A program made the translations under genes and the position numbers. Of a stretch of DNA of 13,418 bases, positions 1-13,248 are shown in pieces. The stretch is from Clostridiales bacterium GWB2_37_7 (lineage in GTDB: Bacteria > Bacillota > Clostridia > Lutisporales > Lutisporaceae). The notes under the pieces are model-generated. The model was not told the origin of the DNA. It worked only from the letters and a program-made list of their open reading frames with translations, and did no database searches. The stretch is taken from NCBI GenBank assembly GCA_001797185.1, contig MGOS01000111.1, forward strand, positions 11,646 through 25,063, given 5' to 3'. Every line of letters starts with the position of its first letter. Positions within the stretch are counted from its first letter, which is position 1.

Positions 1-190
1 ATCATGAACTTCCTTGTTGGAAGTCCTCTGGCGTATTATATAAACTGTAATATTGTTCGTAAGCTTCTATCCTAGTATAACCAATTTGGCTGTCTATGAG
101 TCGATACAGGGCTGGTGGATTGCTCCTCATACCCCTCGGTATTGCCGTCGCCTTATACGTTACGGTTTCACCGAAAAAGTCAGATTTTCA

Positions 191-210
191 CTTGTAAATC
201 ACTTTACAAG
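191..210. other. Perfect 8-bp inverted repeat hairpin (CTTGTAAA-TCAC-TTTACAAG) next to the left repeat copy. On the minus strand it is followed by a T-run and is a possible terminator.
   Basis: Self-complementary sequence at 191-198 and 203-210. The minus strand downstream reads TGAAAATCTGACTTTTTCGG. Confidence 0.3.
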
Positions 211-222
211 GCGACTCTATTA

Positions 223-287
223 AATCAAAACCCTGCGTGATAGTGCTTCAACCAAAGCTCGACCAGTGCAGACGGTGATTTTACATT
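223..287. repeat. Left copy of a ~65-bp diverged direct repeat (tRNA-derived sequence), immediately downstream of the giant gene stop
   Basis: AATCAAAACCCTGCGTGATAGTGCTTCAACC...CCAGTGCAGACGGTGATTTTACATT at 223-287 matches 8221-8286 at roughly 80% identity in the same orientation. The segments CCCTGCGTGAT.GTGCTTCAACC and GCAGAC.GTGATTTTACATT are nearly identical. Confidence 0.65.
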
Positions 288-323
288 ATTCTTGCTCTTT
301 CTACTTTTTAAGGTTCAAACATA

Positions 324-3300
324 TTACATCTTCTCAACACCCTTTGTCAGCACGTCAGTCATAACCACTAGTTTTTCATTCAGATCACCGAGCTTAAGGA
401 TCGCCTGACCTATTTTATCTTCACCCTTCATGAGCTTATTTTTCAAGAAGATATCTTTGATCTCCTTCCACCTTGCAGCATCCTGTTCGTTGAGACGTCC
501 GACAATTTCCTTCCACTTAAGCATATTTGCTTCTGCTCCTTTTGTTAAGGTTTGGGAGTCATTTTCATAGGAATTCTCAACCAGCTGCATTAGCTCCGTC
601 TCATCCATTAAGGGTACAATTCTTTCTGCGATTTTGTTCATATTTCTGTAAGAGCCTTGAAGCTTGAAAGGCGGCTCTTTTCTATATTCATCAGCTTGAG
701 CTGCGGAGTAGATGTACTCCATATTAATATCCAGCACTACATCGCGCACCAGAATAAGCTTTTGAATAACAGCAACAAACTCATTTATCTCCTCAACGGA
801 GTATTGACTTTCGAAATCCACACCTTCGCGTTCTCCATTCTGTGCGATATCAATCATTATATATATATCCTTTTGACTTCTGGTTGTAAGCTTGTTTAGA
901 ATCGGATTGGAGGTCAGACAGTTTTCGATATAGCTCAGCTTAAATGCATTCTCATTTTCCCGGAGCATATCTCCAAGGTTATATACATCTGCTCTATTTG
1001 CAAGCATGTCAGGAATTTGGAACTTTTCACCACTTTCGGTGTAAGGATTTCCTGCCATAACAACAGCAAGCTTCTTGCCCCTAAGGTCATAGGTTTGCCC
1101 TACCCCATTATAAACACCTTCAATTTTTCTCTGCCCGTCACACAGAGGAATAAACTTTTGCAGGAACTCCGGGCTGCAGTGTTGGATATCATCGATATAG
1201 ATCATTACATTATTGCCCATTTTGAAAGCTAAGTTCAGCTTTCGCAGTTCTTCCCTTGCTCCTGCATTTTTCGCCATAGCAGGATCCAGTGAGGTTACAT
1301 CATTGCCAATGGCCGGGCCATTGACCTTGACAAGAAAAATGCCAAGACGATTTGCAATATACTCTACAAGAGTCGTTTTCCCATAGCCGGGAGGGGATAT
1401 CAGCAGAAGCATTCCCATTAAGTCCGTTCGCTTATCCTCTCCTGTCGTACCGATCTGTTTTGCCAGATTGTCACCAATCAATGGCAGATACACCTTGTCA
1501 ATTAGTCGATTTCTTACAAAAGAGGATAACACATCTGGCTTAAACTCTTCCAAGCGGATTTCATCTCTAAACCTCTGTGATAGGTCCTTCTTTAAAGTTT
1601 GAAACTCAATAAAGTCACGGACAACAGTTCTGTCATATTCCTTTAGCTTTTTCATAAATTCCGTATAGGAAAGGGTATACGCTCCCCCTTTAAAGCTTGG
1701 ATGGCTGCCAGTCAACTCTTTAATGATCACTTTTGTCTTTCTGTTAATGACTTTAGGGCTGCCACCGCCATCGCATTTATCAACAATCAACATTATGACG
1801 ACTTCATCCATTACGTCAAAGCCCTCATTTAAGCTTGTTTCCTTAAAGAATGCTTTCAGCCATTCCCTGACTAGATAATATGCACCTTCCAAATCTTCTT
1901 CGAAAGCCTTAAGTGACTCTGCAAAAATATCTTGAGCCTTATTCGCTTTCATATGTTGCATGAACTTGCTTTTAGCTTCATCAGCTTCTAGGCTTGCAAC
2001 AAAGGAACCATCACGCATTAATTCCTTGCAAAGATATTCTGAGGCTTCAGAAACAAAGCTCTTATCAATGAATATATAGTTACTGAAAGCCTGATTCATT
2101 TCTGCTGCAATGGTAGAAATGTAGTCTTTTAATCCAGGCTCAGTCTTGAAATACACGCTAATTTTTGCCAGCTCTTTCAACCGTCTGCAGAACTTATCCT
2201 TCATTTCCGAGCCGACTATACAATACCAGTAAAGCTTGGCAATTGCTCTTGATGAAGGACTATAGGTCAAAAGATCAATATTCATATGCAAATCTAAAAG
2301 AACCTTTAGTATTCTATAACAATCTGCATCATGAACACCTTTTGTATATCCCTCTTGATAACGAGGCTCCATAAATTTGCGAATAAACTCCAAAAGCTGG
2401 TCTTCTGTGTATGAATAGAGTGTATCAAGCGTAACGATATCCTTATTTAAAGCGGCTTCAAATATCTTATAAACAAGATACTCTGCGCGGTAAATTTCCT
2501 TGGATTCAGAAAGTACATCCTGATCCCACAAGTAGCGAAACTTTGCCAGTGTATCCGACATTACTTTTTCCCAGAAATCAGTTCCCGATATATGAAAATA
2601 TAGTTCCCCATCTTTTTGTACCATTGATAGCTCAAGCTGTTGAGTATTGTAGGAAAAATAATGTCTGCCAAATTTAATGACATCTTTTCCATGAACAAAA
2701 AGCTCCTGTCTGTCTTTTAGTTGACGGACAGCCTCTTCTTTAATGATCTTTAGCCTGCCCTCTATCTCATCAGCTTTTACACTGTCTCCCAACACCTTCA
2801 GTTGATCTATGATATCTCTTACCTTCTCAATCATGAGATCTGATGCAAGGTAACCGTTAATCTCATTAATGGTATGAAAGCCTTGAAGTCGGCTTGTGAT
2901 TCCGGTCAGTATCCGCTCAGATGTATTAAAAAGAGCAGTAAGCTTTTTATTTCGTTTTTCCAAGACCAGCTGTTTTTTCGCTACAAAGGCGTTATAAAGC
3001 TCTTCCCGCTTTTCATTGAACTTTACAATGAACTCTTCAAAATCAGCAAATTTGCCTTCCAACTCTTCAATCTGCACCATGATCTTGTTCAAATATGAAT
3101 CACATTTCTCTGTGCTGTCTGCAATGTCAAGATAATTGGCTGCTGCTTGGTCCAGGAGCTTCATTTGGGACTGGAATTGTGCAATGCCTTCTTTCTCAGA
3201 AAGCTCTGCCATACGGTTTTTAAGCTTAGCTTTTGCCAGATTTAATAATGAATAAATGGCAGAAATATTTTCTATAATCTCAGTTGTTTTCGTTGGATCT

Positions 3301-5240
3301 TCAATTTTGAAATTGCTTACAATATCAATGAGAAGTTCAAGATCCTGAGAGGATTTGGCCATCTCATTCTCAAGCTCTTTACCTGCAGAAGTCTTTGTAA
3401 TACAAGGTATTTGGCTCTGCTGACTGTCAACTCGTTCAGCATAAGGCTTAAGACCTTCAGGCACCAGCAAAAATTCAGTACATCTTTGAGTAAGCTTTTC
3501 ATTTTTTTCTTTTACTTTCTCTTCTAAAGATTCAACAAGCGCTAAATTTGTATAACGCAAAGTCTTCAGAGAGGCAATTTCTCCCCTTAAAGACCTTAAA
3601 TCTGCTAGAATCTGCACATAGCCTTCAATACTGTCAAAAGTACCATATTCAGCATTCTTTAACAGCACCTGTGCCTTTTCATCTACCTCTTTAATTTGCT
3701 TTTCAGTTGAACGCCTTATTCTTGTAACCTTTTCGAACTCAGCAACTGCTGAAGTGGCAGCCTCTTTTATGCTGCTAAGCACTGCCTTCAAGTTGAAGAC
3801 TTCCACTTTGTCCAGCCAATAATAAGAGTCCATAATGCGCTCCGTGTCTTTAACAATGTCCAGATAAATGCTTGTATAGCTCTCCCCTTTTTGAATAAGA
3901 TTATATACAACCTTGCAATCTGCCATACAGTGAACAATTTCTTTATTGCCTATTTTATATAGAATTGAGTCGCTTTTATTCTCAACTGTATAGCTTTCTC
4001 CTACATATGGAGTTTGCCAAATTTGTATGGTGTGGTTCTTACGAGGCTCATCCTCTCCCTTAAAAATCACCATTTCACCATTCTTAAAGTGTGAGTATCC
4101 TCCGCAAATTATTGGTATTTCTAAAGACTGTTCAATGATATTGTATGTATAAATAAGATATATGCCCGTTTCCATGTTGTAGAAAATGTATTGAAAATCC
4201 TCTCCATTTGGGGCTTCTATTCGCTGCTCAAAAACAAACCCTTCACAGGGCACGTCAAAGAGCTTATACTCACCACTTTGCAGATAATAGCCCTTGGGGA
4301 AGATAAGTCCATGATTATCCGGAAGCAGAACACATGAATCCTTTATCGCATCTATACGAACAACCATCTGAAGCTTTTCATTAAATATGATATAGCGGTA
4401 CTCCTTCTCCCTGTAAGGAAGAATCTTCAAGATTATCAGATTTCCTACCAGAGCATAATATATTTCAGCATCATCAAGAGTCTGGTCCATATCTTCCACA
4501 GGCTCCGAATAGATGCCTTTGCCGGTATCTGTGTTATTCTCCACCTTTATTGTAAGGTCTCCGCCTAAGGTTTCCACAAAGACCCTGTCTTTAATCGAGA
4601 TATGGGGATGTCTGCCCTCCCGATGGTCTTCCCTTTTAACTCTAGCCCAATCAAGCTCGCTTTGTTCCTTCAGTCTTACCTCATGGTCACTCCTGTTGTC
4701 TACGTAGGAAAGCTTTCCATCCTTCATAAGCCATTTAAAGGCTTTGATGTCGAAGGGGCTCTTTCCGGTCTGAAATACCATGTAAAGATAAGGACCAATG
4801 ATTGTAAACTTTGCAAAGAACGTATTTTTATAGTACTTATACAACTCCTTGAAGTCGTTCATAAATTGGTCATTGCAAATAAGCTCTAAGGATTGCTTAT
4901 GAAATGAACCGTCCTTGTATTCATAGATGGAAAAGACGTCAGAAAGCTCAACAGAAGTTTTCAATCCCATATACACGTTATAACCGAAAATAAACAAAGC
5001 TCCCACGGGAGCCATGTCTCGTGGGACGCAGTTGTTTTCAGTAATGATCTTTTCACTGCCGAGTAGGGTTGTCTCAATTGAACCAAACACGCCTCTTCTG
5101 GAACTATTTAATTTATCGAGCTTATCTTTTAGGTCACAGCCAAGTCTGTCGAGTCTGCTCTTGATTAATTCATACGTGCCGTTTTCTATACTTCCGACAG
5201 GGTTTTGCCCGCCTTGTTCAGTCATTTTTAATTCACCCAC
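324..5240 (-). CDS. Giant (1638 aa) multidomain protein with a MoxR/AAA_5-type AAA+ ATPase domain near the C-terminus. It also has a long central coiled-coil segment and an N-terminal beta-rich region of unknown function.
   Basis: One uninterrupted 4.9-kb ORF on the minus strand. Walker A is LLLISPPGYGKTTL (encoded around nt 1375-1400), Walker B is VMIYIDDIQH (nt ~1185-1205), and a sensor motif VVMAGNPYTE follows. These fit MoxR/dynein-like AAA_5 ATPases (GPPGxGKT ... hhhDE ... ATxNP). A long heptad-like K/E/L-rich stretch (aa ~480-800) indicates coiled coil. The start may be GTG at 5240 (SD GAGGTG 9 nt upstream) or the in-frame ATG at 5225 (MTEQ...). The gene lies 17 nt downstream of the flotillin stop, so it is probably co-transcribed. 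Confidence 0.85.
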   Translation of the reverse strand: MGELKMTEQGGQNPVGSIENGTYELIKSRLDRLGCDLKDKLDKLNSSRRGVFGSIETTLLGSEKIITENNCVPRDMAPVGALFIFGYNVYMGLKTSVELSDVFSIYEYKDGSFHKQSLELICNDQFMNDFKELYKYYKNTFFAKFTIIGPYLYMVFQTGKSPFDIKAFKWLMKDGKLSYVDNRSDHEVRLKEQSELDWARVKREDHREGRHPHISIKDRVFVETLGGDLTIKVENNTDTGKGIYSEPVEDMDQTLDDAEIYYALVGNLIILKILPYREKEYRYIIFNEKLQMVVRIDAIKDSCVLLPDNHGLIFPKGYYLQSGEYKLFDVPCEGFVFEQRIEAPNGEDFQYIFYNMETGIYLIYTYNIIEQSLEIPIICGGYSHFKNGEMVIFKGEDEPRKNHTIQIWQTPYVGESYTVENKSDSILYKIGNKEIVHCMADCKVVYNLIQKGESYTSIYLDIVKDTERIMDSYYWLDKVEVFNLKAVLSSIKEAATSAVAEFEKVTRIRRSTEKQIKEVDEKAQVLLKNAEYGTFDSIEGYVQILADLRSLRGEIASLKTLRYTNLALVESLEEKVKEKNEKLTQRCTEFLLVPEGLKPYAERVDSQQSQIPCITKTSAGKELENEMAKSSQDLELLIDIVSNFKIEDPTKTTEIIENISAIYSLLNLAKAKLKNRMAELSEKEGIAQFQSQMKLLDQAAANYLDIADSTEKCDSYLNKIMVQIEELEGKFADFEEFIVKFNEKREELYNAFVAKKQLVLEKRNKKLTALFNTSERILTGITSRLQGFHTINEINGYLASDLMIEKVRDIIDQLKVLGDSVKADEIEGRLKIIKEEAVRQLKDRQELFVHGKDVIKFGRHYFSYNTQQLELSMVQKDGELYFHISGTDFWEKVMSDTLAKFRYLWDQDVLSESKEIYRAEYLVYKIFEAALNKDIVTLDTLYSYTEDQLLEFIRKFMEPRYQEGYTKGVHDADCYRILKVLLDLHMNIDLLTYSPSSRAIAKLYWYCIVGSEMKDKFCRRLKELAKISVYFKTEPGLKDYISTIAAEMNQAFSNYIFIDKSFVSEASEYLCKELMRDGSFVASLEADEAKSKFMQHMKANKAQDIFAESLKAFEEDLEGAYYLVREWLKAFFKETSLNEGFDVMDEVVIMLIVDKCDGGGSPKVINRKTKVIIKELTGSHPSFKGGAYTLSYTEFMKKLKEYDRTVVRDFIEFQTLKKDLSQRFRDEIRLEEFKPDVLSSFVRNRLIDKVYLPLIGDNLAKQIGTTGEDKRTDLMGMLLLISPPGYGKTTLVEYIANRLGIFLVKVNGPAIGNDVTSLDPAMAKNAGAREELRKLNLAFKMGNNVMIYIDDIQHCSPEFLQKFIPLCDGQRKIEGVYNGVGQTYDLRGKKLAVVMAGNPYTESGEKFQIPDMLANRADVYNLGDMLRENENAFKLSYIENCLTSNPILNKLTTRSQKDIYIMIDIAQNGEREGVDFESQYSVEEINEFVAVIQKLILVRDVVLDINMEYIYSAAQADEYRKEPPFKLQGSYRNMNKIAERIVPLMDETELMQLVENSYENDSQTLTKGAEANMLKWKEIVGRLNEQDAARWKEIKDIFLKNKLMKGEDKIGQAILKLGDLNEKLVVMTDVLTKGVEKM

Positions 5241-5257
5241 AGCTCACTACACCTCAT

Positions 5258-7375
5258 TTACTCGTTACTATTCATTTGTTTTGCAAGAAAGCTAGCCGGC
5301 TCATTGGCAAAGCCCGCCTTTTCTGCAGTTTCCAGTAGCTTTACAAGTGCAGGCTTTTCTGATGAATCCGCATACTTCATTGCTTTATGAATAGCAGCTG
5401 AAATTGATAGATTTTTCAAGTCCTCTGAAGTCAGGTTGAATTTTGAAGTCAGTTGTTCCAACTGTGACTTGAAATAATCACCATCACCTGTTATAAAGGT
5501 ATTCTTGATATCACTTAATACCTCACTGTTCTTCACCATACGGTCAACGGATTTGCCTTGGGTAATCGCACCGACGATTTTGTCAAAGAACATTGTCTCT
5601 CCTCCAACAATATCAATAGATGCTGACTTCAAAGCTTCACTTATAACAGAGGCTTGGGCGTCTGCTATATCTTTTTGAATATTTATTTGAGCAAGTTCGA
5701 TTTCCTTCTCTTTATCAAGCTTAAGCTTAAATTCTTCATGACCTCTTCCTGCTTCATCAAGCGCCTTCATACTGGTAGCCTTTTTCGCAATGCCTTCTGC
5801 TTCGGCGTGATATTTTTTGGACATGATATCAACCTCAACAGATCCTGATTTTTCTCTTACAATTACTTTGGCTTCTTCACCCTTAGCTTCCGCCAGGGCT
5901 TTTATTTCGATAGCCTTCGCTTCAGCCTGCGCTGTAGCCTCCAATACTCTTGCCTTTGAGCTGCCTTCCTTCTCTATAGCTGTCGCCTTTGTCTCAATGA
6001 CACGAGCTTCTGCCAAACCGTTAGTTGCTGACTGCACAACTTGAGCATCCGCAAGGATTTTGATTGCTTCTGCTTCCTTTTCTGAAGCTTTCAGCTTGGC
6101 CTCAGACTCAATCACTCTTTGCTGTGCTGCTCTTTCAGCCACTTGCTTTGTTGCCTCTGCATTCTGAACCTCTACAATCAGATTGGACTCTGCTTCTTCC
6201 TGTGCCTTCTTTAAAGCTGCTGCCTTTTGACGTTCCGCTTCAGCAATTACCCTTGTATCTTTAATCTTCTCTTCTTCAATTACTACATCCTTCTCAACTG
6301 CCACACGTTCACGGATAACTGTCTGAATGTTTTTCTTCTCTTCCTCCAGAGTTTTTTCTTTATCAATCTCTGCAAGGGCTACCAATTTTTCTTTATCAAC
6401 TTTCTCTAACAATCTTTTCTTATCAACTCGTTCTGTTTCAACAACCTCTGTACTCTCCTTGGATTTCTGGGCTACAACAATCTGTCTTTGCTTGTTTTCT
6501 TCCGCAATGGCAATATCCTCATCAACTTTGATACGAGCCATTTCAGCCTTTAGCCGCTCTTCTTGAGAAACTTTATCAGTCTCCGCCTTCTCTCTTGCTC
6601 TGATAATTGCGATTTCTCTCTGCTGTCTAGCTTCTGCTTCTTGATGCTGTTTCTCAAGCTCAAGAATAGCCTCACTTGCTACCACATCCTGCTGCTTGAT
6701 GGTTTTTTCCTTGTTTCGCTCAATCTGATTTGCAAGAATCAATTGCTGAGAGGTTAGTTCGGTAATTTTTTTGATACCCTCTGCATCCAGGATATTATTG
6801 GCATTCAGCTTATTTATATCAGTTTGCTCTAAATAATCAATAGCAGCATCATCTAGAACGTAACCATTCAAATCAGTGCCGATAATTTGAAGAATCTCAC
6901 TTTTAAACTTCTCTCTATCGGTGTATAGTTCAACGAAATCAAACTTCTTACCTACAGTCTTCAATGCCTCGGAGAATTTTGCATCGAAGAATTCCATCAG
7001 TGTGCCCGGATCTGAAGCCTTTTGGCATCCCAAGGATTGAGCTACCTTCAGTACGTCCTCTCTGGTCTGGTTGACTCTGACGAAAAATGCAACTCTTATA
7101 TCTGCTCTCATGTTATCCTTACAGATAAGTCCGTCTTTGCCTTCTCTGGAAATCTCAACTCTTTTTACTGAAATATCCATGATTTCTGCTCTGTGTAAAA
7201 TAGGTATCACTAACATGCCGCCAAAGGAAACCATCTGACCTCCTACGCCATTTCTTACGATTACCTTACTTTGTTCTACTTTTTTGTAGAATTTAGCTAT
7301 CAAGGAAATTAATCCTATAACGATTAATACTAAAACGCCAGCAGTTATTAATGTTACTTGTGTCATGTAAGCCAT
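5258..7375 (-). CDS. Flotillin-like SPFH/band-7 domain protein (YqiK/FloT type), 705 aa
   Basis: It has an N-terminal TM helix (LITAGVLVLIVIGLISLIAKFY) followed by a PHB/SPFH domain (VIVRNGVGGQMVSF...RADIRVAFFVRV). A very long E/A/K/Q-rich coiled coil with EA-repeat flotillin character (AEAEAKAIEIKALAEAKGEEAKV) follows. Its start codon overlaps the upstream NfeD gene (ATGGCTTACATGA), indicating translational coupling. Confidence 0.9.
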   Translation of the reverse strand: MAYMTQVTLITAGVLVLIVIGLISLIAKFYKKVEQSKVIVRNGVGGQMVSFGGMLVIPILHRAEIMDISVKRVEISREGKDGLICKDNMRADIRVAFFVRVNQTREDVLKVAQSLGCQKASDPGTLMEFFDAKFSEALKTVGKKFDFVELYTDREKFKSEILQIIGTDLNGYVLDDAAIDYLEQTDINKLNANNILDAEGIKKITELTSQQLILANQIERNKEKTIKQQDVVASEAILELEKQHQEAEARQQREIAIIRAREKAETDKVSQEERLKAEMARIKVDEDIAIAEENKQRQIVVAQKSKESTEVVETERVDKKRLLEKVDKEKLVALAEIDKEKTLEEEKKNIQTVIRERVAVEKDVVIEEEKIKDTRVIAEAERQKAAALKKAQEEAESNLIVEVQNAEATKQVAERAAQQRVIESEAKLKASEKEAEAIKILADAQVVQSATNGLAEARVIETKATAIEKEGSSKARVLEATAQAEAKAIEIKALAEAKGEEAKVIVREKSGSVEVDIMSKKYHAEAEGIAKKATSMKALDEAGRGHEEFKLKLDKEKEIELAQINIQKDIADAQASVISEALKSASIDIVGGETMFFDKIVGAITQGKSVDRMVKNSEVLSDIKNTFITGDGDYFKSQLEQLTSKFNLTSEDLKNLSISAAIHKAMKYADSSEKPALVKLLETAEKAGFANEPASFLAKQMNSNE

Positions 7376-8001
7376 TTGTCAATCACTCCTTCTAGTTTTG
7401 TAATTAAGTAAAAGTCTTTTTCTTCATCTTTTTTCAAGACCAGAACCTCATCTCCCTTTTGAAGCTCTTCGTCCTTTATCGTTTTAACGTTGATAATGAT
7501 TGGACTGCCATCTCTCTTTATCTCCACTTGCCCCAAACGGCCAAATGTCATATCGCAAAGAAGTATTCCTCGCCTGCCTTCAACAATTTCTTGCTCAAAC
7601 TCAGATTTGGTCCCCTTCCTGAATGCTTTTTCCAAGGGACTTAAGATTGCTTTTGTTATCAATGCACTTATTATTAAACTTGGAAGCATAAATATACCTG
7701 CAACGATCCCCCCTGTCTTAAAGGGCAGCAAGTGCATAGCCATTGACAAAACCCAAAAAACTAGAATGATAACGCTGATAACAAATCCTATTGGAATTCG
7801 ACCTATTTTAAAAAATATCATTATGCTATGCAAAGGATCTGAAATAGCATCCACATCAGCATCCACGTCTATGTCAATATCCAAGGAAGACAGATCAAGA
7901 GCGCCAATGGTTACAAACAGCCAATACAAAACAACCAAGCCCAACAAAGTAGTAGGAATAATATTTACACCCTCAACTGCAGTCGTAAAAAGCTCGTTCA
8001 T
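7363..8001 (-). CDS. NfeD-like membrane protein (YqiJ type) encoded upstream of flotillin
   Basis: It has several hydrophobic helices (LLGLVVLYWLFVTIGAL; IGFVISVIILVFWVLSMAMHLL; GIVAGIFMLPSLIISALI). A C-terminal OB-fold-like soluble domain follows (GRRGILLCDMTFGRLGQVEIKRDGSPIIINVKT...GDEVLVLKKD), as is typical of NfeD short homologues partnered with SPFH proteins. The RBS is strong (AAAGGAGAAACGAT before the ATG at 8001). Confidence 0.85.
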   Translation of the reverse strand: MNELFTTAVEGVNIIPTTLLGLVVLYWLFVTIGALDLSSLDIDIDVDADVDAISDPLHSIMIFFKIGRIPIGFVISVIILVFWVLSMAMHLLPFKTGGIVAGIFMLPSLIISALITKAILSPLEKAFRKGTKSEFEQEIVEGRRGILLCDMTFGRLGQVEIKRDGSPIIINVKTIKDEELQKGDEVLVLKKDEEKDFYLITKLEGVIDKWLT

Positions 8002-8043
8002 ATCGTTTCTCCTTTACATATATTTGAAAATATTTACTAATGA

Positions 8044-8072
8044 ATTATAGCATAATTAGGAAATTCTTACAA
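8044..8072 (-). promoter_or_regulatory. Candidate sigma-A promoter for the NfeD-flotillin-AAA+ operon (minus strand: -35 TTGTAA, 17-nt spacer, -10 TATAAT)
   Basis: Plus-strand ATTATA at 8044-8049 reads TATAAT on the minus strand. Plus-strand TTACAA at 8067-8072 reads TTGTAA on the minus strand. The spacing is 17 nt, and the site lies ~45 nt upstream of the NfeD ATG/RBS. Confidence 0.35.
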
Positions 8073-8151
8073 TTATGAATTAAATAGCAACACCGTCATG
8101 ATTATCATTCTATTATGGCACTTTCGCACTTATTCATACAAAAGAACAAAA

Positions 8152-8172
8152 GTCTGTGATGTCGTCCATCAC
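8152..8172 (-). terminator. Hairpin CTGTGATG-TCGTC-CATCACAG, followed on the minus strand by ACTTTTGTTCTTTTGT. It is a candidate intrinsic terminator downstream of the tRNA-like element.
   Basis: 8-bp perfect stem, 5-nt loop and a U-rich tract on the minus strand. It lies ~35 nt downstream (minus sense) of the tRNA-like 3' end. Confidence 0.35.
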
Positions 8173-8207
8173 AGGCTTTCCTATGTAAAAATTGTATTCT
8201 TTTTTAG

Positions 8208-8295
8208 TGGAAGCGAGGAGAATCGAACCCCTGCGTGATCGTGCTTCAACCGATGCGACCACCAGCGCAGACAGTGATTTTACATTCCCTCTGCC
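8208..8295 (-). other. tRNA-like remnant on the minus strand. It has a canonical T-arm, an acceptor 3' strand and an anticodon-loop-like segment (GAA/Phe-like), but no pairing 5' acceptor strand. It is probably a pseudo-tRNA or integration-site relic.
   Basis: The minus strand reads ...GCATCGGTTGAAGCACGATCACGC-AGGGG-TTCGATT-CTCCT-CGCTTCC-A. The T-stem is AGGGG/CTCCT with one G-U pair, and the T-loop is TTCGATT (G53/T54/T55/C56 pattern). A 7-nt acceptor 3' strand and discriminator A follow, with no encoded CCA. Upstream, a 7-nt loop TTGAAGC with U33 and purine 37 sits between partial stems ATCGG/ACGAT. The expected 5' acceptor strand GGAAGCG is absent (AAATCAC instead) and the D-arm is irregular. 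Confidence 0.45.
8221..8286. repeat. Right copy of the ~65-bp direct repeat, contiguous with a tRNA-like 3' half
   Basis: AATCGAACCCCTGCGTGATCGTGCTTCAACCGATGCGACCACCAGCGCAGACAGTGATTTTACATT. See the left-copy entry for the comparison. Confidence 0.65.
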
Positions 8296-8527
8296 ATATG
8301 CGCCGACCTCAGACTTACAGCTTTAGTAGCTTCATAATGCGTTATCTGTCTCAAAGCTTTGACAATAACGTTCACCTCTAAATGACGCCTTATCCTAAAG
8401 TGAGGTAACAAAAAGTAAGACGAGCAGCCTAAGCTGCTAACGCGTAATTGACCTTTGCATTTAATATAATTTTCCAGCTTTTTAAAGTAACCCTGGGACC
8501 ACCGCTCGCTACCTCGATAACATTGTG

Positions 8528-8559
8528 GGACAAGGAACCTCTTTGTCCTTTCTATCTCC
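8528..8559 (+). terminator. Terminator- or attenuator-like hairpin (GGACAAGGA-ACC-TCTTTGTCC) followed by TTTCTATCTCC. It lies in the long 5' leader of the sugar-modification cluster.
   Basis: 9-bp stem (one G-U pair), 3-nt loop and a T-rich tail on the plus strand. Confidence 0.3.
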
Positions 8560-8711
8560 AATCAGCCACCAAGCGTGCAATTCGGTCAGCATCCTGAGTT
8601 CCTTGAAGATTATCTTCCACACAATGTAAGTAGCACTTTTTATGAGTGGTGAATATACTAATATATGGTGCGACCACATATAATTTAGTATGTAATTGAG
8701 AGGGATTTGCA

Positions 8712-9674
8712 ATGATTAAGCTTGCTTTGATAGGCTGTGGAAAATGGGGAAAGAATTATTTGAAAACCGTAACTGCAATAGAGGGCAGTGAATTGAAGTG
8801 GGCCTGCGACCTTGATGATCAAAAGCTAAATCAAGCCGCTCCTGCTTACCCAGAGACGATGTTCACTGAAAACAAAGCAGATATATTGAATGACAGTGAG
8901 GTGCAGGGGGTTATTATAGCCACAACACCGGTCAGCCATTACTTGCTGGCGAAGGAAGCAATAAACAAAGGCAAAGCTGTTCTCGTAGAAAAGCCTGTGA
9001 CAATTAACAGGGAAGACAGTAATGATCTGATTGAATTGGCTGCTGCACAAAATACCATATTGATGGCCGGCTACTCATTGATTTACCATCCTGCTGTCAA
9101 AAAGATAAAGGGGCTCCTGGAACAAAAAGATATTATTGATGAGCTATATTACTTGAACATGTCCAGAACCAGTTCTGCCTCTCAGGCTCTAAGCGTAGAT
9201 GTTCTTCATGATCTGGCAGTTCATGATATCTATCTTTCCCGCCACTTGATAGGGGTCGACCCCATCTGGGTAATTGCCCATGGGGAAAGTTACAGTAAAT
9301 CTTGTTATAACAACGTTATTAATATACTGATGGGTTTCCCGGATGGTAAAATAGCTTCTATATTTTCAAGTTTCATTCATACCGAAAAAACCAGGAAAAT
9401 TACACTGGTCGCATCAAAAACAAAATTAGTATTTGATGATACACAGACCACCGATAGAAAAATCCAACTCTTCGTTAATGGAGAGCTGGCGCATTTCTTG
9501 GCAGTAGAAGAAAATTTAGAACCTCTGACACAGGAGTGTCTTCATTTTATCGAATGCATTAGAGATAACAAGGAACCCCTTAGCGGCAGAGAAAATATAG
9601 ATTTTGTGGCAAAAATAACTGATTGCATTTCCGACTCTCTCGCAAAAGGCGGAGAAAAAGTCATCATCCGCTGA
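8712..9674 (+). CDS. Gfo/Idh/MocA-family NAD(P)-dependent oxidoreductase. It is probably a UDP-sugar 3-dehydrogenase of the GnnA/WbpB/NtdC type.
   Basis: N-terminal Rossmann motif MIKLALIGCGKWGKNY, 320 aa, RBS GAGAGGGA 7 nt before the ATG. It sits in a cluster with a DegT-family aminotransferase. Confidence 0.8.
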   Translation: MIKLALIGCGKWGKNYLKTVTAIEGSELKWACDLDDQKLNQAAPAYPETMFTENKADILNDSEVQGVIIATTPVSHYLLAKEAINKGKAVLVEKPVTINREDSNDLIELAAAQNTILMAGYSLIYHPAVKKIKGLLEQKDIIDELYYLNMSRTSSASQALSVDVLHDLAVHDIYLSRHLIGVDPIWVIAHGESYSKSCYNNVINILMGFPDGKIASIFSSFIHTEKTRKITLVASKTKLVFDDTQTTDRKIQLFVNGELAHFLAVEENLEPLTQECLHFIECIRDNKEPLSGRENIDFVAKITDCISDSLAKGGEKVIIR

Positions 9675-9715
9675 TGGAGACGGTAAGCATGATAATCAGA
9701 TAAGTGGGTGAAATT

Positions 9716-10702
9716 ATGTTGGTTGTAAAGAGCTATTCAAGAGAACTTGAGAATGAATGGGAGGGATTTGTCGATTCCTCAGTGAACGGCACTTTTATGC
9801 AGGAGAGAAAATTCCTGGGCTATCATCCTTCAGACAAGTTTTCAGATCATTCTCTGATATTTATTGAGGATAAGAAAATCATTGCCGTTCTTCCTGCTGC
9901 CGTAGTACAACAAGAGGATAAACGCATCCTATATTCTCACCCCGGTGCTTCCCATGGAGGGCTGATTATCAAGTCTAGTCTAAGCACTAAAAAATGCTTG
10001 AAGTTAGTAAGCGCCCTTATTGAATATTGTGCCATGACCGGTTTTGACTATATACGGCTAAAACCCGTTCCGAGGATTTACCATAGTGGGCTTTCGGACC
10101 AACTTGACTTTGCATTAAGGTTCTCGGGGTTTGAAATTGAGTATACAGAGCTGGCTACAGCCCTTGAGCTAAAGAAAGGCAAGAATCATTTTTTAAAGCA
10201 TGTGATGAGTTCCACCGCTTTGCGAAACTATCAAAAGGCACTGAAAAGTGGACTTTCGGTTATTGAAGATGCGGATATAAATGATTATTGGGCTGTGTTA
10301 GAGAAAAATCTTGAACTTAACCATAATGCAAAGCCTACACATACATTTAAGGAAATCAAATACTTAAAAGAACTTTATCCTGATAGGATCAAGCTCTTTG
10401 CTGCTTATAAAGGGTCAATCCTTACTGCGGGCGTTCTCGTGTTTTTACTGAACGAAAGAGTAATAAACTGTTTTTATATTGCCCACGACGACCGATACCA
10501 ACACATGCGGCCGTTAAATCTGGTTTTTGGTTATATGATGGAGTGGGGAGGTCAAAACAGTTTTTCTTATTTGGATTGGGGTATTTCCACTGAGGGAAAA
10601 GGAAGCCGGGTTAATACCGGGCTGTTCCAGTTCAAAGAAGGCTTTGGAGGTCATGGTGTGTTACGGGAAAGTTATTTGTATGACGTAAACAATACTAGAT
10701 AG
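9716..10702 (+). CDS. FemAB-like/GNAT-fold acyl- or aminoacyl-transferase family protein (Acetyltransf_6-like)
   Basis: The ~330-aa ORF has an N-terminus typical of the FemAB-like acetyltransferase fold (SRELENEWEGFVDSS...TFMQERKFLGYH). The start is ambiguous: ATG at 9716 (weak SD GGGTGA) or an in-frame GTG at 9704, as in the ORF track. Confidence 0.5.
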   Translation: MLVVKSYSRELENEWEGFVDSSVNGTFMQERKFLGYHPSDKFSDHSLIFIEDKKIIAVLPAAVVQQEDKRILYSHPGASHGGLIIKSSLSTKKCLKLVSALIEYCAMTGFDYIRLKPVPRIYHSGLSDQLDFALRFSGFEIEYTELATALELKKGKNHFLKHVMSSTALRNYQKALKSGLSVIEDADINDYWAVLEKNLELNHNAKPTHTFKEIKYLKELYPDRIKLFAAYKGSILTAGVLVFLLNERVINCFYIAHDDRYQHMRPLNLVFGYMMEWGGQNSFSYLDWGISTEGKGSRVNTGLFQFKEGFGGHGVLRESYLYDVNNTR

Positions 10703-10719
10703 TTTAGTGGGGTAGTGCA

Positions 10720-11415
10720 ATGAAAATAGCAGGTCATCAACCGAATTATATTCCCTGGCCGGGATACTTTGTTAAGATGGTACAGTGTGATATTTTTTTT
10801 ATTTTAGATACTGCTCAGTTTCAAAATGACGGTTCATTGGATAATAGGAATCTTATCAAAACTTCCCAAGGGACTCAGATGCTTACAGTGCCGGTCAAAC
10901 GTAAAGGCATGGGCTTGCAGCGATTTGATGAAGTTATTGTTATACCGGGTTGGAAAAGGGATCATCTTATGGCACTCAAAGTAAACTACGCAAAAGCACC
11001 TTATTTCGAAGAAGTTTTCCCGATGCTGGAGCAGGCATTGCAAGATACCGGGTATCTTATAGATACCAACATAGCTTTTATCAGGCTTGTACATGACCTG
11101 CTGGGACTGAAAACAAAGCTTGTTTTTGTATCAGATTTACCTCAATTTGCCGATCTTAGAAAAAGTGAACAGATCGCTGCAATCTGCCGCCACTTTTCTG
11201 CTGACTGTTACCTGTCCGGCGTTGGAGCGAAGGCATATATTCAACCCGAGATTTTTGAAGAACAAGGCATTCAGTTGGAATATCTGGCCTATCAGCCTGT
11301 TACATATCCACAGCTTTGGGGTAGCTTTATCCCTAATCTGTCTATCGTTGATATGTTATTTAACTGTGGGGCGGAGGACACACGCAAGCTTTTGTTGAGA
11401 GAGGTGCAAGTATGA
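10720..11415 (+). CDS. WbqC-like family protein, a common component of O-antigen/glycan clusters with unknown catalytic role
   Basis: 231 aa. The N-terminus MKIAGHQPNYIPWPGYF matches the conserved WbqC-family start (MKxAIxQPxYxPWxGYF), and the size fits. Confidence 0.65.
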   Translation: MKIAGHQPNYIPWPGYFVKMVQCDIFFILDTAQFQNDGSLDNRNLIKTSQGTQMLTVPVKRKGMGLQRFDEVIVIPGWKRDHLMALKVNYAKAPYFEEVFPMLEQALQDTGYLIDTNIAFIRLVHDLLGLKTKLVFVSDLPQFADLRKSEQIAAICRHFSADCYLSGVGAKAYIQPEIFEEQGIQLEYLAYQPVTYPQLWGSFIPNLSIVDMLFNCGAEDTRKLLLREVQV

Positions 11416-12386
11416 CCAGGGTACTGTTTTTTTCACATGATTTGAAATATACTCTTGGGCTGCCGCAGGGTTTTAGGGAACTGAACTGCCCTGTTTTTGT
11501 CCTGAGGGATTTAAGTAGAAGTTCTATAAAAGAGGCAGTTGACCACTTTAGGCCTGACCTTATGATAACAACGGGATGGGCTTACCGCCGGCATAAACGT
11601 GAGCATGTAGATGAATTGGTCAAAAGAGCTGCTAAATATAAGGTGAAACATGTCTATTGGGCAACTGAAGATCCAAGATGGACCCAAGAGTGTTCCTTCA
11701 AGTGTATTGAAATCTATAAACCTGATGCAGTTATGACCATACATCCTGATAGTGTAAATAAATACAGGGAGCTGGGGCTTCCTGCCAGGCATCTGGATTT
11801 TGGCTGCAATCGGTCGTTCAATAAGGTTGAACCTCCAAGCAGTAAATATAATTATGATGTGGCTTTAGTCGGAAACGGCGGCAAAGCCTGGGAATCCTAT
11901 CGGAAGGATAGCGTTCAGATACTTTTAAGGCCCTTGGTGGAAAGGGGCTATAACCTTGCGATCTGGGGCAAGAGATGGGACCGTTTCAACGAGGAGTTGA
12001 TGGGTTTTAAGCTTCCGAAGCATATGCTCAAGGGAGAGCTGCCCTATGAGGAAACCAACAAGGTTTATAATTCAGCCAAAATAATAATCGGTTTGCAAAA
12101 CGACCAAACAATGCTGACTTCCCGGACTTTTGAAGTACTGGGTTCAGGCGGGTTTTTGCTGACAGTATCTACGAAGTCCGTCAATCATTTGTTTACAAAC
12201 AATGTTCATCTGACATGTTCATCCTCCCCGGTCGATACAGTCAGGCTTGTTGATTACTATTTGAAAAATGAGGCGGAGCGTCATGCAATAGCACGAAACG
12301 GGCAGCAGGAGGTCTACTCAAAGCATACGTATAAGGAACGTGCCAGACAAATTCTTGATTTCTATAGTTTGGTTGAAAGGAATTGA
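11412..12386 (+). CDS. CgeB-type (Glyco_trans_1_2-like) glycosyltransferase family protein
   Basis: 324 aa. The C-terminal motif RTFEVLGSGGFLLT resembles the RxFEalacG signature of CgeB/DUF3880-type GT-B proteins. Its ATG overlaps the previous stop (ATGA) and is preceded by SD GAGAGAGGTG. Confidence 0.55.
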   Translation: MTRVLFFSHDLKYTLGLPQGFRELNCPVFVLRDLSRSSIKEAVDHFRPDLMITTGWAYRRHKREHVDELVKRAAKYKVKHVYWATEDPRWTQECSFKCIEIYKPDAVMTIHPDSVNKYRELGLPARHLDFGCNRSFNKVEPPSSKYNYDVALVGNGGKAWESYRKDSVQILLRPLVERGYNLAIWGKRWDRFNEELMGFKLPKHMLKGELPYEETNKVYNSAKIIIGLQNDQTMLTSRTFEVLGSGGFLLTVSTKSVNHLFTNNVHLTCSSSPVDTVRLVDYYLKNEAERHAIARNGQQEVYSKHTYKERARQILDFYSLVERN

Positions 12387-12387
12387 A

Positions 12388-13248
12388 ATGGATAATCAGA
12401 CAACTATTAAACAGAAGGTTTCTCTAATGGGTACTAGCATTACTGGCGAATCTGATGCAAAGGTTACTTTTTATCCAGCCCCGCCTAATACAGGTGTAAT
12501 ATTTATCCGTAATGACCTGCCAGGCTGCCCTAGAGTAAAATGTTCATTTGAAAATGCAAAGGTTGAGCATCGATGGACGTCGCTGATACATGAAAATATT
12601 CGTATTGTCCATACAGAGCATGCTCTGGCAGCAATTTCAGGGTTGGGGTTGACTAATGTATTTGTTGAGTTGGAACAGCCCAGCTTGCCTGTGACACCGG
12701 ATTACGGCAGTAAAGAGTTTGTACGGGTTCTCTTGGACGCTGGAATAGAAGAACAACAATTTATGCAGGAAAAGATTAAAATACGTAAGCCAATTATTAT
12801 TTTTAAAAGAGATAGATTTGAGAGCTTTAAAAATGAAAAGCTGCTGATAGCACTGCCATACGATGGGTTCAAGTTAACTTATATTCTTGATTATCCTAAT
12901 CTGCCGCTATTATATCAAAATGTTGAAATAGACATTAACCCCCAAACCGTTATTAAGGAATTAGCGGATGCTCGTTCTTATGTAATTGAATCGGAGTTTG
13001 AAGAAATGATAAGCTTGACCGGAAAGGTCAGCGCAAACGATCTGGTAGTCAGAACCGGAGCTGAACGAGGAGAATGGCAATGGCCAAATGAACCTGCCCG
13101 CCATAAAGCACTCGATCTTCTTGGGGACCTTAGCTTACTTGGGAAAAAGATTCAGGGGCACGTGATAGGTATCAGATCCGGTCACCGGTTAAACCACGAG
13201 TTATGCAAAAAAATTTATAGGGAGTGTAAAGATGATTGCTTTGGCTAA
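12388..13248 (+). CDS. lpxC: LpxC-family deacetylase (UDP-3-O-acyl-N-acetylglucosamine deacetylase fold)
   Basis: Strong motif-level match to LpxC: TIKQKVSLMGTSITGESDAKVTFYPAPPNTGVIFIRNDL; IVHTEHALAAISGLGL; ARHKALDLLGDLSLLG; GHVIGIRSGHRLNHEL. The preferred start is the ATG at 12388 with SD AAGGAA 5 nt upstream. The longer ORF from 12340 overlaps the preceding gene and lacks an SD. Confidence 0.85.
   Translation: MDNQTTIKQKVSLMGTSITGESDAKVTFYPAPPNTGVIFIRNDLPGCPRVKCSFENAKVEHRWTSLIHENIRIVHTEHALAAISGLGLTNVFVELEQPSLPVTPDYGSKEFVRVLLDAGIEEQQFMQEKIKIRKPIIIFKRDRFESFKNEKLLIALPYDGFKLTYILDYPNLPLLYQNVEIDINPQTVIKELADARSYVIESEFEEMISLTGKVSANDLVVRTGAERGEWQWPNEPARHKALDLLGDLSLLGKKIQGHVIGIRSGHRLNHELCKKIYRECKDDCFG

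Follow-up and report, generated by a model that had tools for sequence, protein, structure and literature searches.

What does a very large ATPase do when its gene is tied to that of a flotillin? The question is raised by a three-gene cassette of Clostridiales bacterium GWB2_37_7 (contig MGOS01000111.1, positions 11,646 to 25,063), in which genes for an NfeD-like membrane protein, an SPFH/flotillin protein and a giant AAA+ protein follow one another. We analysed the whole stretch of 13,418 nucleotides (nt) around it, called the window below. A first-pass annotation, made from the sequence alone, had considered the arrangement undescribed. This turned out to be wrong: the arrangement was described by comparative genomics in 2024, and the window holds a further member. 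Judged by its genes, the locus is the PspA-less, abbreviated form of the CesT/Tir–PspA–YqiJ–flotillin–AAA+ operon, and we consider that the cassette as a whole is probably a Psp-related module for remodelling of membrane scaffolds.

A conserved gene trio linked to PspA operons

CesT/Tir–PspA operons that include genes for a YqiJ/YuaF-type protein with three transmembrane segments, a flotillin and an AAA+ ATPase with beta-propeller and coiled-coil regions were described by Ravi et al. 2024 (mSystems, PMC11237479; preprint 2020). The same trio was found there with and without PspA, the PspA-less arrangement being the abbreviated operon form (PMC11237479). A supplementary example, from Dokdonia donghaensis (ANH61663.1), has the architecture that we recovered in Bacteroidota. 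The window shares with these operons the upstream YqiJ/YuaF-like gene for a protein with three transmembrane segments, the flotillin gene and the AAA+ module fused to propeller and coiled coil. It differs from them in carrying the trio only, with no PspA, CesT/Tir or helix-turn-helix (HTH) regulator gene within 13.4 kb, and in its setting, a Clostridia-type metagenome-assembled genome where the cassette lies between repeats derived from transfer-messenger RNA (tmRNA); the published description is purely computational.

The neighbourhood of the giant gene was compared in 82 loci by calling open reading frames (ORFs) and running profiles built from the window proteins against them. A locus counted as informative for flotillin if it had more than 3.2 kb of upstream DNA (n = 65). 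In 63 of these 65 a flotillin orthologue of ~700 amino acids (aa) is encoded upstream of the giant gene on the same strand, and the NfeD-like gene is kept in 57 of 64 loci. The intact trio is also present in Proteus, Vibrio, plasmid pQBR103 and Streptomyces. Linkage of the trio is obligate-like, in agreement with the earlier proposal that the genes make one conserved, functionally linked module; homologues of the giant protein are linked to flotillin, and no well-characterised family absorbs it. Whatever else lies near the trio varies and consists of unrelated genes for housekeeping or metabolism.

Some Bacteroidota and Verrucomicrobiota loci (L014, L025, L028, L044, L056, L064 and others) have gaps of 0.5–2.4 kb between the flotillin gene and the giant gene. 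These are occupied by genes for DUF559 endonuclease-like, biotin/lipoyl-domain and DUF3592/ion-channel-like proteins and by unknowns. As candidates for a fourth conserved component the gap genes were rejected, since they vary between loci.

All-against-all clustering of the neighbouring ORFs revealed three further recurrent families only. PspA/IM30 is encoded in 20 of the 82 loci (E down to 1.4e-44), all of them in Bacteroidota; a CesT_Tir_1 gene is found in 16 loci by clustering (14 in a Pfam scan of the two upstream genes) and a divergently transcribed HTH regulator in 18. The three families occur in Bacteroidota immediately upstream of the NfeD-like gene. The full extended operon, in the order divergent HTH regulator, CesT_Tir_1, PspA/IM30, NfeD-like protein, flotillin, giant ATPase, is present in 16–20 of the 82 loci (e.g. 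L008, L020, L028, L036, L043, L056, L062 and L081). These Bacteroidota loci reproduce the complete published operon, with divergent HTH, CesT_Tir_1 and PspA genes.

On pQBR103, a megaplasmid of Pseudomonas fluorescens SBW25 (L084, NC_009444.1, 85.1–97.6 kb), the trio closes a PspA operon of yjfJ type. The order there is PspA, rhomboid protease, DUF2491, DUF350, DUF1190, a glutathionylspermidine-synthase-like protein, NfeD-like protein, SPFH protein and ATPase, a content that ties the trio to polyamine-associated Psp operons. A role in membrane remodelling or stress, which was among the functions first suggested for the locus, fits this recurrent operon fusion with PspA/IM30.

The family is large. 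With aa 1–1200 of the giant protein, the part outside the AAA+ domain, 1333 clusters (50% identity level) were matched at E <= 1e-3 and 422 at E <= 1e-30, most of them full-length in architecture (1600–1900 aa). A motif scan of one genome per species found a giant homologue in at least 591 GTDB species. The best 80 loci belong to Clostridia, Bacteroidota, Planctomycetota, Verrucomicrobiota, Desulfobacterota and Fibrobacterota-like lineages. Records from a plasmid collection add pQBR103, plasmids of Hymenobacter, Deinococcus and Streptomyces, and apparent chromosomes of Proteus mirabilis, Vibrio campbellii, Photobacterium, Halomonas and Nonomuraea. At least eight phyla are represented among the 82 loci, with Gammaproteobacteria, Actinomycetota and Deinococcota entering through the plasmid or chromosome records. 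A blastn search of 5,426 complete Escherichia coli genomes gave no homologue of the giant gene. That the module is accessory and horizontally mobile is supported by the plasmid copies, the variable flanks and, in the present genome, the flanking repeats.

In Clostridium intestinale (L001, 3975–5157) a LytTR regulator gene and a gene for a LiaF-like membrane protein (LiaF-TM + LiaF-like_C) are situated directly upstream of the cassette on the same strand, a hint of a further link to cell-envelope stress. No envelope-stress regulator was seen upstream of the other Clostridia copies, which have unrelated genes at this place.

Layout of the cassette and its promoter

Three co-directional ORFs on the minus strand fill positions 8001..324 of the window (Table 1). 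Genes 1 and 2 overlap by 13 nt (7363–7375), and the flotillin gene is separated from the giant gene by 17 nt if a GTG start is used and by 32 nt with an ATG start. The NCBI model (P0001, protein 100% identical) starts at the ATG at 5225, five codons later, and has 1633 aa. The tight packing reported in the first-pass annotation, with the 13-nt overlap and the 17-nt gap, is confirmed.

So is its single candidate promoter upstream of the NfeD-like gene. The site listed in Table 1, which precedes gene 1 by 43 nt, has the best score among sigma-70-like sites in a scan of positions 1..8720. The DNA is AT-rich, and the total number of promoter-like sites, 25, does not exceed chance expectation (20.8 +/- 4.3). 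The hexamers and the 5′ untranslated region have near-identical counterparts in L083, the closest relative, with 88% identity between the giant proteins. DNA homology with L083 takes the form of a 7.8-kb block (window 8075..326, 84% identity). The block begins immediately before the −35 hexamer and ends at the giant gene's stop codon, which indicates that the conserved unit is the promoter plus three genes.

Genes 1 and 2 form a yqiJK-type pair

The protein encoded by gene 1 has three transmembrane helices predicted from hydropathy, an acidic D-x-D-x-D loop after the first helix and a C-terminal beta-domain. By itself it has no significant Pfam match to NfeD, and its identification needed profile methods. 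Compared alone with YqiJ_N (PF21001) it reaches E 0.012 only; the same model matches 17 of 30 orthologues, with the best E 3.6e-8. An alignment of the gene 1 family with E. coli YqiJ by hhalign has a probability of 96.8% (E 2.9e-10), and the family profile matches the soluble domain of Bacillus subtilis YuaF (2k14) at E 0.05. PF01957, the C-terminal OB-fold of NfeD, gives no match to the window protein and matches two of the 30 orthologues, only at E ~0.03. From these comparisons 'NfeD-like (YqiJ type)' is the defensible label for the product.

Gene 2 encodes an SPFH domain at aa 33–173 (Band_7, E 4.5e-10), followed by a long coiled coil rich in E, A and K and by a conserved C-terminal region. 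Over 435 aa covering SPFH domain and coiled coil, its product shares 31% identity with E. coli YqiK (E 3e-45). A single hydrophobic segment, at aa 1–33, is predicted by hydropathy to be an N-terminal transmembrane or hairpin anchor; being the sole anchor, it would place the bulk of the flotillin in the cytoplasm. Conservation extends over the whole length of the protein in 65 cassette-linked orthologues. The Pfam model for the Flot C-terminal region does not match the gene 2 protein, and a sequence search of the PDB with the flotillin gave no match.

With gene 1 resembling YqiJ and gene 2 resembling YqiK, the two genes make up a pair of yqiJK type. The pairs E. coli yqiJK and B. subtilis yuaF-floT have homologous genes in the same order, with translational coupling; the difference is that the model pairs come without a third gene. 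In addition, the cassette-linked flotillin is ~150 aa longer than YqiK.

Gene 3 encodes a beta-propeller/AAA+ ATPase

No transmembrane segments were predicted in the giant protein by hydropathy, and it is predicted to be a soluble cytoplasmic ATPase. Its N-terminal part was thought at first to lack any family signature. This was mistaken: PF12458/DUF3686 covers aa 36–474 with E 1.2e-179, and PF25472/DUF7902 covers aa 596–678 with E 1e-23. At aa 1266–1401 there are weak matches to AAA, AAA_22, AAA_5 and RuvB_N. The score for AAA_5 is 24.1 bits (cut-off 22) and that for the generic AAA model is higher, 31.9 bits; AAA_3, the model for MoxR proper, is unmatched. A PDB sequence search with the giant protein gave matches confined to the P-loop/AAA region.

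Two AlphaFold2 models, on alignments of 87 sequences, cover aa 1–700 (mean predicted local distance difference test score, pLDDT, 86.6) and aa 690–1638 (mean pLDDT 85.9). The outline drawn previously, a beta-rich N-terminal part followed by coiled coil and, further on, an ATPase module, is reproduced by the models (Table 1). Foldseek matches of aa 58–409 are beta-propellers (ranks 1, 6, 8, 11–13 and others), with E down to 5.6e-7 and low TM-scores. In structure comparison the AAA+ fold is nearest to the MoxR-family proteins CbbQ and NorQ, along with dynein and midasin; RavA is another ATPase of the MoxR family, to which the AAA modules of dynein and midasin are related. Residues K1288, D1350/D1351, N1398, R1371, R1416 and R1532 are invariant in 34 homologues with identities down to 28%, and this invariance of catalytic residues argues for an active ATPase.

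The homologues from Planctomycetota and Verrucomicrobiota (P0271–P0384) have ~1780–1890 aa and are consistently 150–250 aa longer than those from Clostridia and Bacteroidota (~1620–1680 aa).

Table 1. Features of the window and predicted regions of the giant protein (nucleotide positions refer to the window; aa positions to the 1638-aa product)
Feature	Position	Strand	Details
NfeD-like gene 1	8001..7363	minus	212 aa
SPFH/flotillin gene 2	7375..5258	minus	705 aa
Giant ATPase gene 3	5240..324	minus	1638 aa from GTG start
Candidate sigma-70-like promoter site	8072..8044	minus	TTGTAA-17-TATAAT, extended −10 TG, 10/12 positions matching
Giant protein, helix	aa 21–52		AlphaFold2 model
Giant protein, divergent beta-propeller (DUF3686)	aa 58–409		about 7–8 four-stranded beta units, AlphaFold2 model
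Giant protein, helical hairpins, three-helix bundles/coiled coil	aa ~420–850 (~430 aa)		includes DUF7902 (596–678), AlphaFold2 model
Giant protein, small beta unit	aa ~854–892		AlphaFold2 model
Giant protein, helical domain	aa ~896–1230		AlphaFold2 model
Giant protein, AAA+ alpha/beta domain	aa ~1245–1440		predicted beta-hairpin ~1372–1385 ahead of sensor-1 strand
Giant protein, lid and C-terminal helical domain	up to aa 1638		AlphaFold2 model
Giant protein, AAA+ motifs			Walker A GYGKT (K1288), Walker B DD 1350–1351, sensor-1 N1398, R1416
tmRNA-like gene	8539..8205	minus	Rfam RF00023, 44.3 bits (gathering threshold 47), E 2.6e-16
Terminator-like hairpin	8174..8154	minus	after tmRNA-like gene
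Upstream direct repeat copy	8286..8221	minus	3′ part of tmRNA-like gene, up to T-loop
Downstream direct repeat copy	287..223	minus	~40 nt past stop of giant gene; similarity ends inside T-loop

A tmRNA-like gene and repeats around the cassette

Directly upstream of the cassette, on the same strand and outside the operon, there is a tmRNA-like gene (Table 1). Its tag frame as read from the sequence, AKVNYALAA-stop, is plausible. The 5′ acceptor/D-loop region is aberrant (GGUGGCUGAUUGGAGAUAGAAAGGAC) and unpaired with the 3′ end (CGCUUCCA-CUA). ARAGORN called no standard tmRNA at default settings, and only spurious 'permuted' ones under relaxed settings. The gene may be a decaying or chimeric ssrA.

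Behind the cassette lies a second copy of the tmRNA-like gene's 3′ part. The two copies, of ~65 nt, are 86–92% identical and ~7998 nt apart, and the ~8 kb between them contain the cassette only, with no integrase gene. Site-specific insertion classically leaves a gene for a tRNA-like RNA followed by a partial copy of that gene's 3′ end, and the direct repeats look like a footprint of attL/attR type. The flanking repeats pointed out in the first-pass annotation are real, and they support its remark that the cassette is an accessory island. In the relatives, neither a tmRNA nor a tRNA gene was found beside the cassette, and their cassettes occupy other sites; the tmRNA adjacency is thus specific to the GWB2_37_7 genome and is not a trait of the family.

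Positions 1–233 of the window (minus strand), which follow the downstream repeat, give a weak match to a 3′-truncated group I intron (RF00028, 18.7 bits, E 0.012). The match begins where the downstream tmRNA fragment diverges in the T-loop, and its remainder would lie outside the window. A group I intron has been reported in the T-loop of a Clostridium tmRNA gene. The cassette may have been inserted into an intron-containing ssrA; two metagenome scans, one using the window's left end and the other the tag region of the tmRNA, found neither the missing flank nor an empty site.

On the other side, at 8712–13248 (plus strand), a divergent gene cluster resembles genes for polysaccharide or lipid-A synthesis. 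It encodes, in this order, a GFO/IDH/MocA oxidoreductase, a FemAB/GNAT-like protein, WbqC, a glycosyltransferase and an LpxC-family deacetylase (E 5e-58). For a genome labelled Clostridiales an LpxC homologue is a surprise; the lineage may be diderm, or the gene may encode an LpxC-like sugar deacetylase.

Proposed function

We infer that the likeliest function of the cassette would be ATP-driven remodelling of sub-membrane assemblies of flotillin or PspA under envelope stress. The flotillin, anchored by its N terminus and accompanied by the NfeD-like partner, would assemble into a large oligomeric scaffold at the cytoplasmic side of the membrane. The giant ATPase would oligomerise via its AAA+ ring, and its beta-propellers, carried on long helical arms, would reach the scaffold or clients held there, such as PspA/IM30 polymers. 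ATP would be spent to remodel, disassemble or load sub-membrane assemblies in envelope or membrane stress. What the analysis shows is that the genes are linked to one another and, in part of the family, to PspA, how the protein domains are arranged, and that the ATPase motifs are conserved. What we infer goes beyond this: that the proteins make physical contact, in what oligomeric state they act, which way remodelling runs and what stress sets it off. For any particular direction our confidence is much lower than for the remodelling module as such.

Functional analogies are provided by Vps4 acting on ESCRT-III and by FtsH inside HflK/C; in the cassette, too, genes for an AAA+ machine and for a presumably oligomeric, membrane-attached scaffold lie together. 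The giant protein is homologous to neither ATPase beyond the general AAA+ fold, and has neither the protease domain of FtsH nor the MIT domain of Vps4. PspA and Vipp1 are homologues of ESCRT-III; Vps4 is not known from bacteria.

The PspA linkage suggests a Vps4-like remodelling role; such a role has been proposed for AAA+ partners of PspA, and for the present architecture ATP-dependent sub-membrane remodelling or chaperoning (PMC11237479). How PspA homologues without an associated AAA+ ATPase regulate assembly was noted there as unknown (PMC11237479).

A narrower version of the proposal, which we put forward as tentative and rather doubtful, is that the giant DUF3686 ATPase may be a dedicated ATP-driven machine for assembly or disassembly of flotillin (SPFH) cages and/or PspA (ESCRT-III-like) polymers. 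Such a machine would be the bacterial functional counterpart of Vps4 or NSF. The protein would resemble clathrin in outline: a beta-propeller at the N terminus, then a long leg of helices, then an oligomerisation hub at the C terminus.

Several observations weigh against the main proposal, a Psp-related module for remodelling of membrane scaffolds. PspA is absent from the 13.4-kb window and from most loci outside Bacteroidota, so that for the present copy the Psp link is indirect. In two loci, L024 and L055, neither a flotillin nor an NfeD-like gene could be detected in more than 7 kb of DNA upstream of the giant gene; among the 65 informative loci these are the only ones without flotillin. 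The Walker B motif of the giant protein is DD, versus the usual DE. MoxR-type ATPases normally act with a VWA partner; no VWA family appeared in the window, nor among the 25 most frequent of 109 and 130 families in Pfam scans of the two genes on either side of the cassette in the related loci (217 genes). Finally, literature searches found no experimental study of any family member, only the comparative-genomics paper (PMC11237479); a paper on SPFH evolution (PMC2636767) and one on Pseudomonas aeruginosa SPFH proteins (PMC13086221) do not mention the ATPase.

The nearest structural relatives of the AAA+ domain, CbbQ and NorQ, are maturation chaperones of the MoxR family, and this would also suit a client-specific chaperone of MoxR type that supplies a membrane protein or complex, corralled by the flotillin, with a cofactor, brings it to maturity or extracts it. 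The likeness would then be to HflK/C–FtsH or to the way FloA stabilises unfolded proteins, with no remodelling of the flotillin or PspA polymers as such. Beta-propellers are typical platforms for binding of substrates or peptides, and two reports describe SPFH cages as enclosing or organising AAA+ machines and unfolded clients (PMC11222466, PMC13220708). However, no conserved client gene or VWA adaptor accompanies the trio, the neighbours beyond PspA and CesT/Tir are not conserved, and the ATPase is without a protease domain. We regard such a chaperone as unlikely.

Anti-phage defence of the abortive-infection type, in which flotillin microdomains would sense perturbation of the envelope by a phage and the giant ATPase would serve as effector or switch, had been among the first suggestions. 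The patchy distribution, apparently by horizontal transfer and with copies on plasmids, would suit a defence system, as would flanks that differ even between relatives with 88% identity and tmRNA-derived direct repeats that bracket the cassette in the manner of genomic islands; large ATPases, moreover, are common in defence systems. Yet a search of PADLOC (PADLOC-DB v2) gave no significant match: the giant protein hits only IetA and mad8, at E ~1e-3 and in the P-loop/AAA region, and the flotillin and NfeD-like proteins match no model. Among the 217 flanking genes the defence matches are scattered and nearly all single, several of them to generic helicases, with no recurring family; the recurrent neighbour is PspA/IM30, which is not a defence gene. 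The trio showed no recognisable effector domain, be it a nuclease, protease, TIR, pore-forming or other one, and a phage collection yielded no homologues. An anti-phage role is left unsupported and seems quite improbable to us. What stands of the first interpretation is thus a conserved, membrane-related, accessory operon; its novelty and its N-terminal domain without a family do not, and its defence function is unsupported.

A DNA repair ATPase standing beside a flotillin by accident is barely credible: the idea has behind it the NCBI product name 'DNA repair ATPase', the description of Pfam PF12458 ('ATPase involved in DNA repair') and a weak RuvB similarity near the P-loop (RuvB_N E 9e-5, RuvB in the PDB E 1.5e-4), but this similarity spans only ~45 residues around Walker A, RuvB models score 21–24 bits against cut-offs of 282–299 and match the P-loop only, no DNA-binding or nuclease domain was detected, the gene neighbourhood shows the gene almost always co-transcribed with two genes for membrane proteins, and a literature search for DUF3686, PF12458 and 'DNA repair ATPase' with flotillin brought up no paper to back the name.

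Implications

Remodelling of membrane scaffolds thus remains the preferred function for the cassette, and the analysis corrects a misleading database name. Proteus mirabilis, Vibrio campbellii, Pseudomonas fluorescens SBW25 plasmid pQBR103 and Streptomyces are candidates in which the cassette could be studied. The cassette bears on how bacterial flotillin scaffolds and PspA/IM30 polymers are assembled, regulated and disassembled. A large and evidently active AAA+ protein hard-wired to the flotillin/NfeD pair in at least eight phyla, and repeatedly to PspA, is a testable candidate for an energy-dependent regulator of microdomains and of membrane repair. If the giant ATPase is indeed a dedicated machine for flotillin or PspA assemblies, flotillin microdomains in these bacteria would be actively turned over, not passively assembled.

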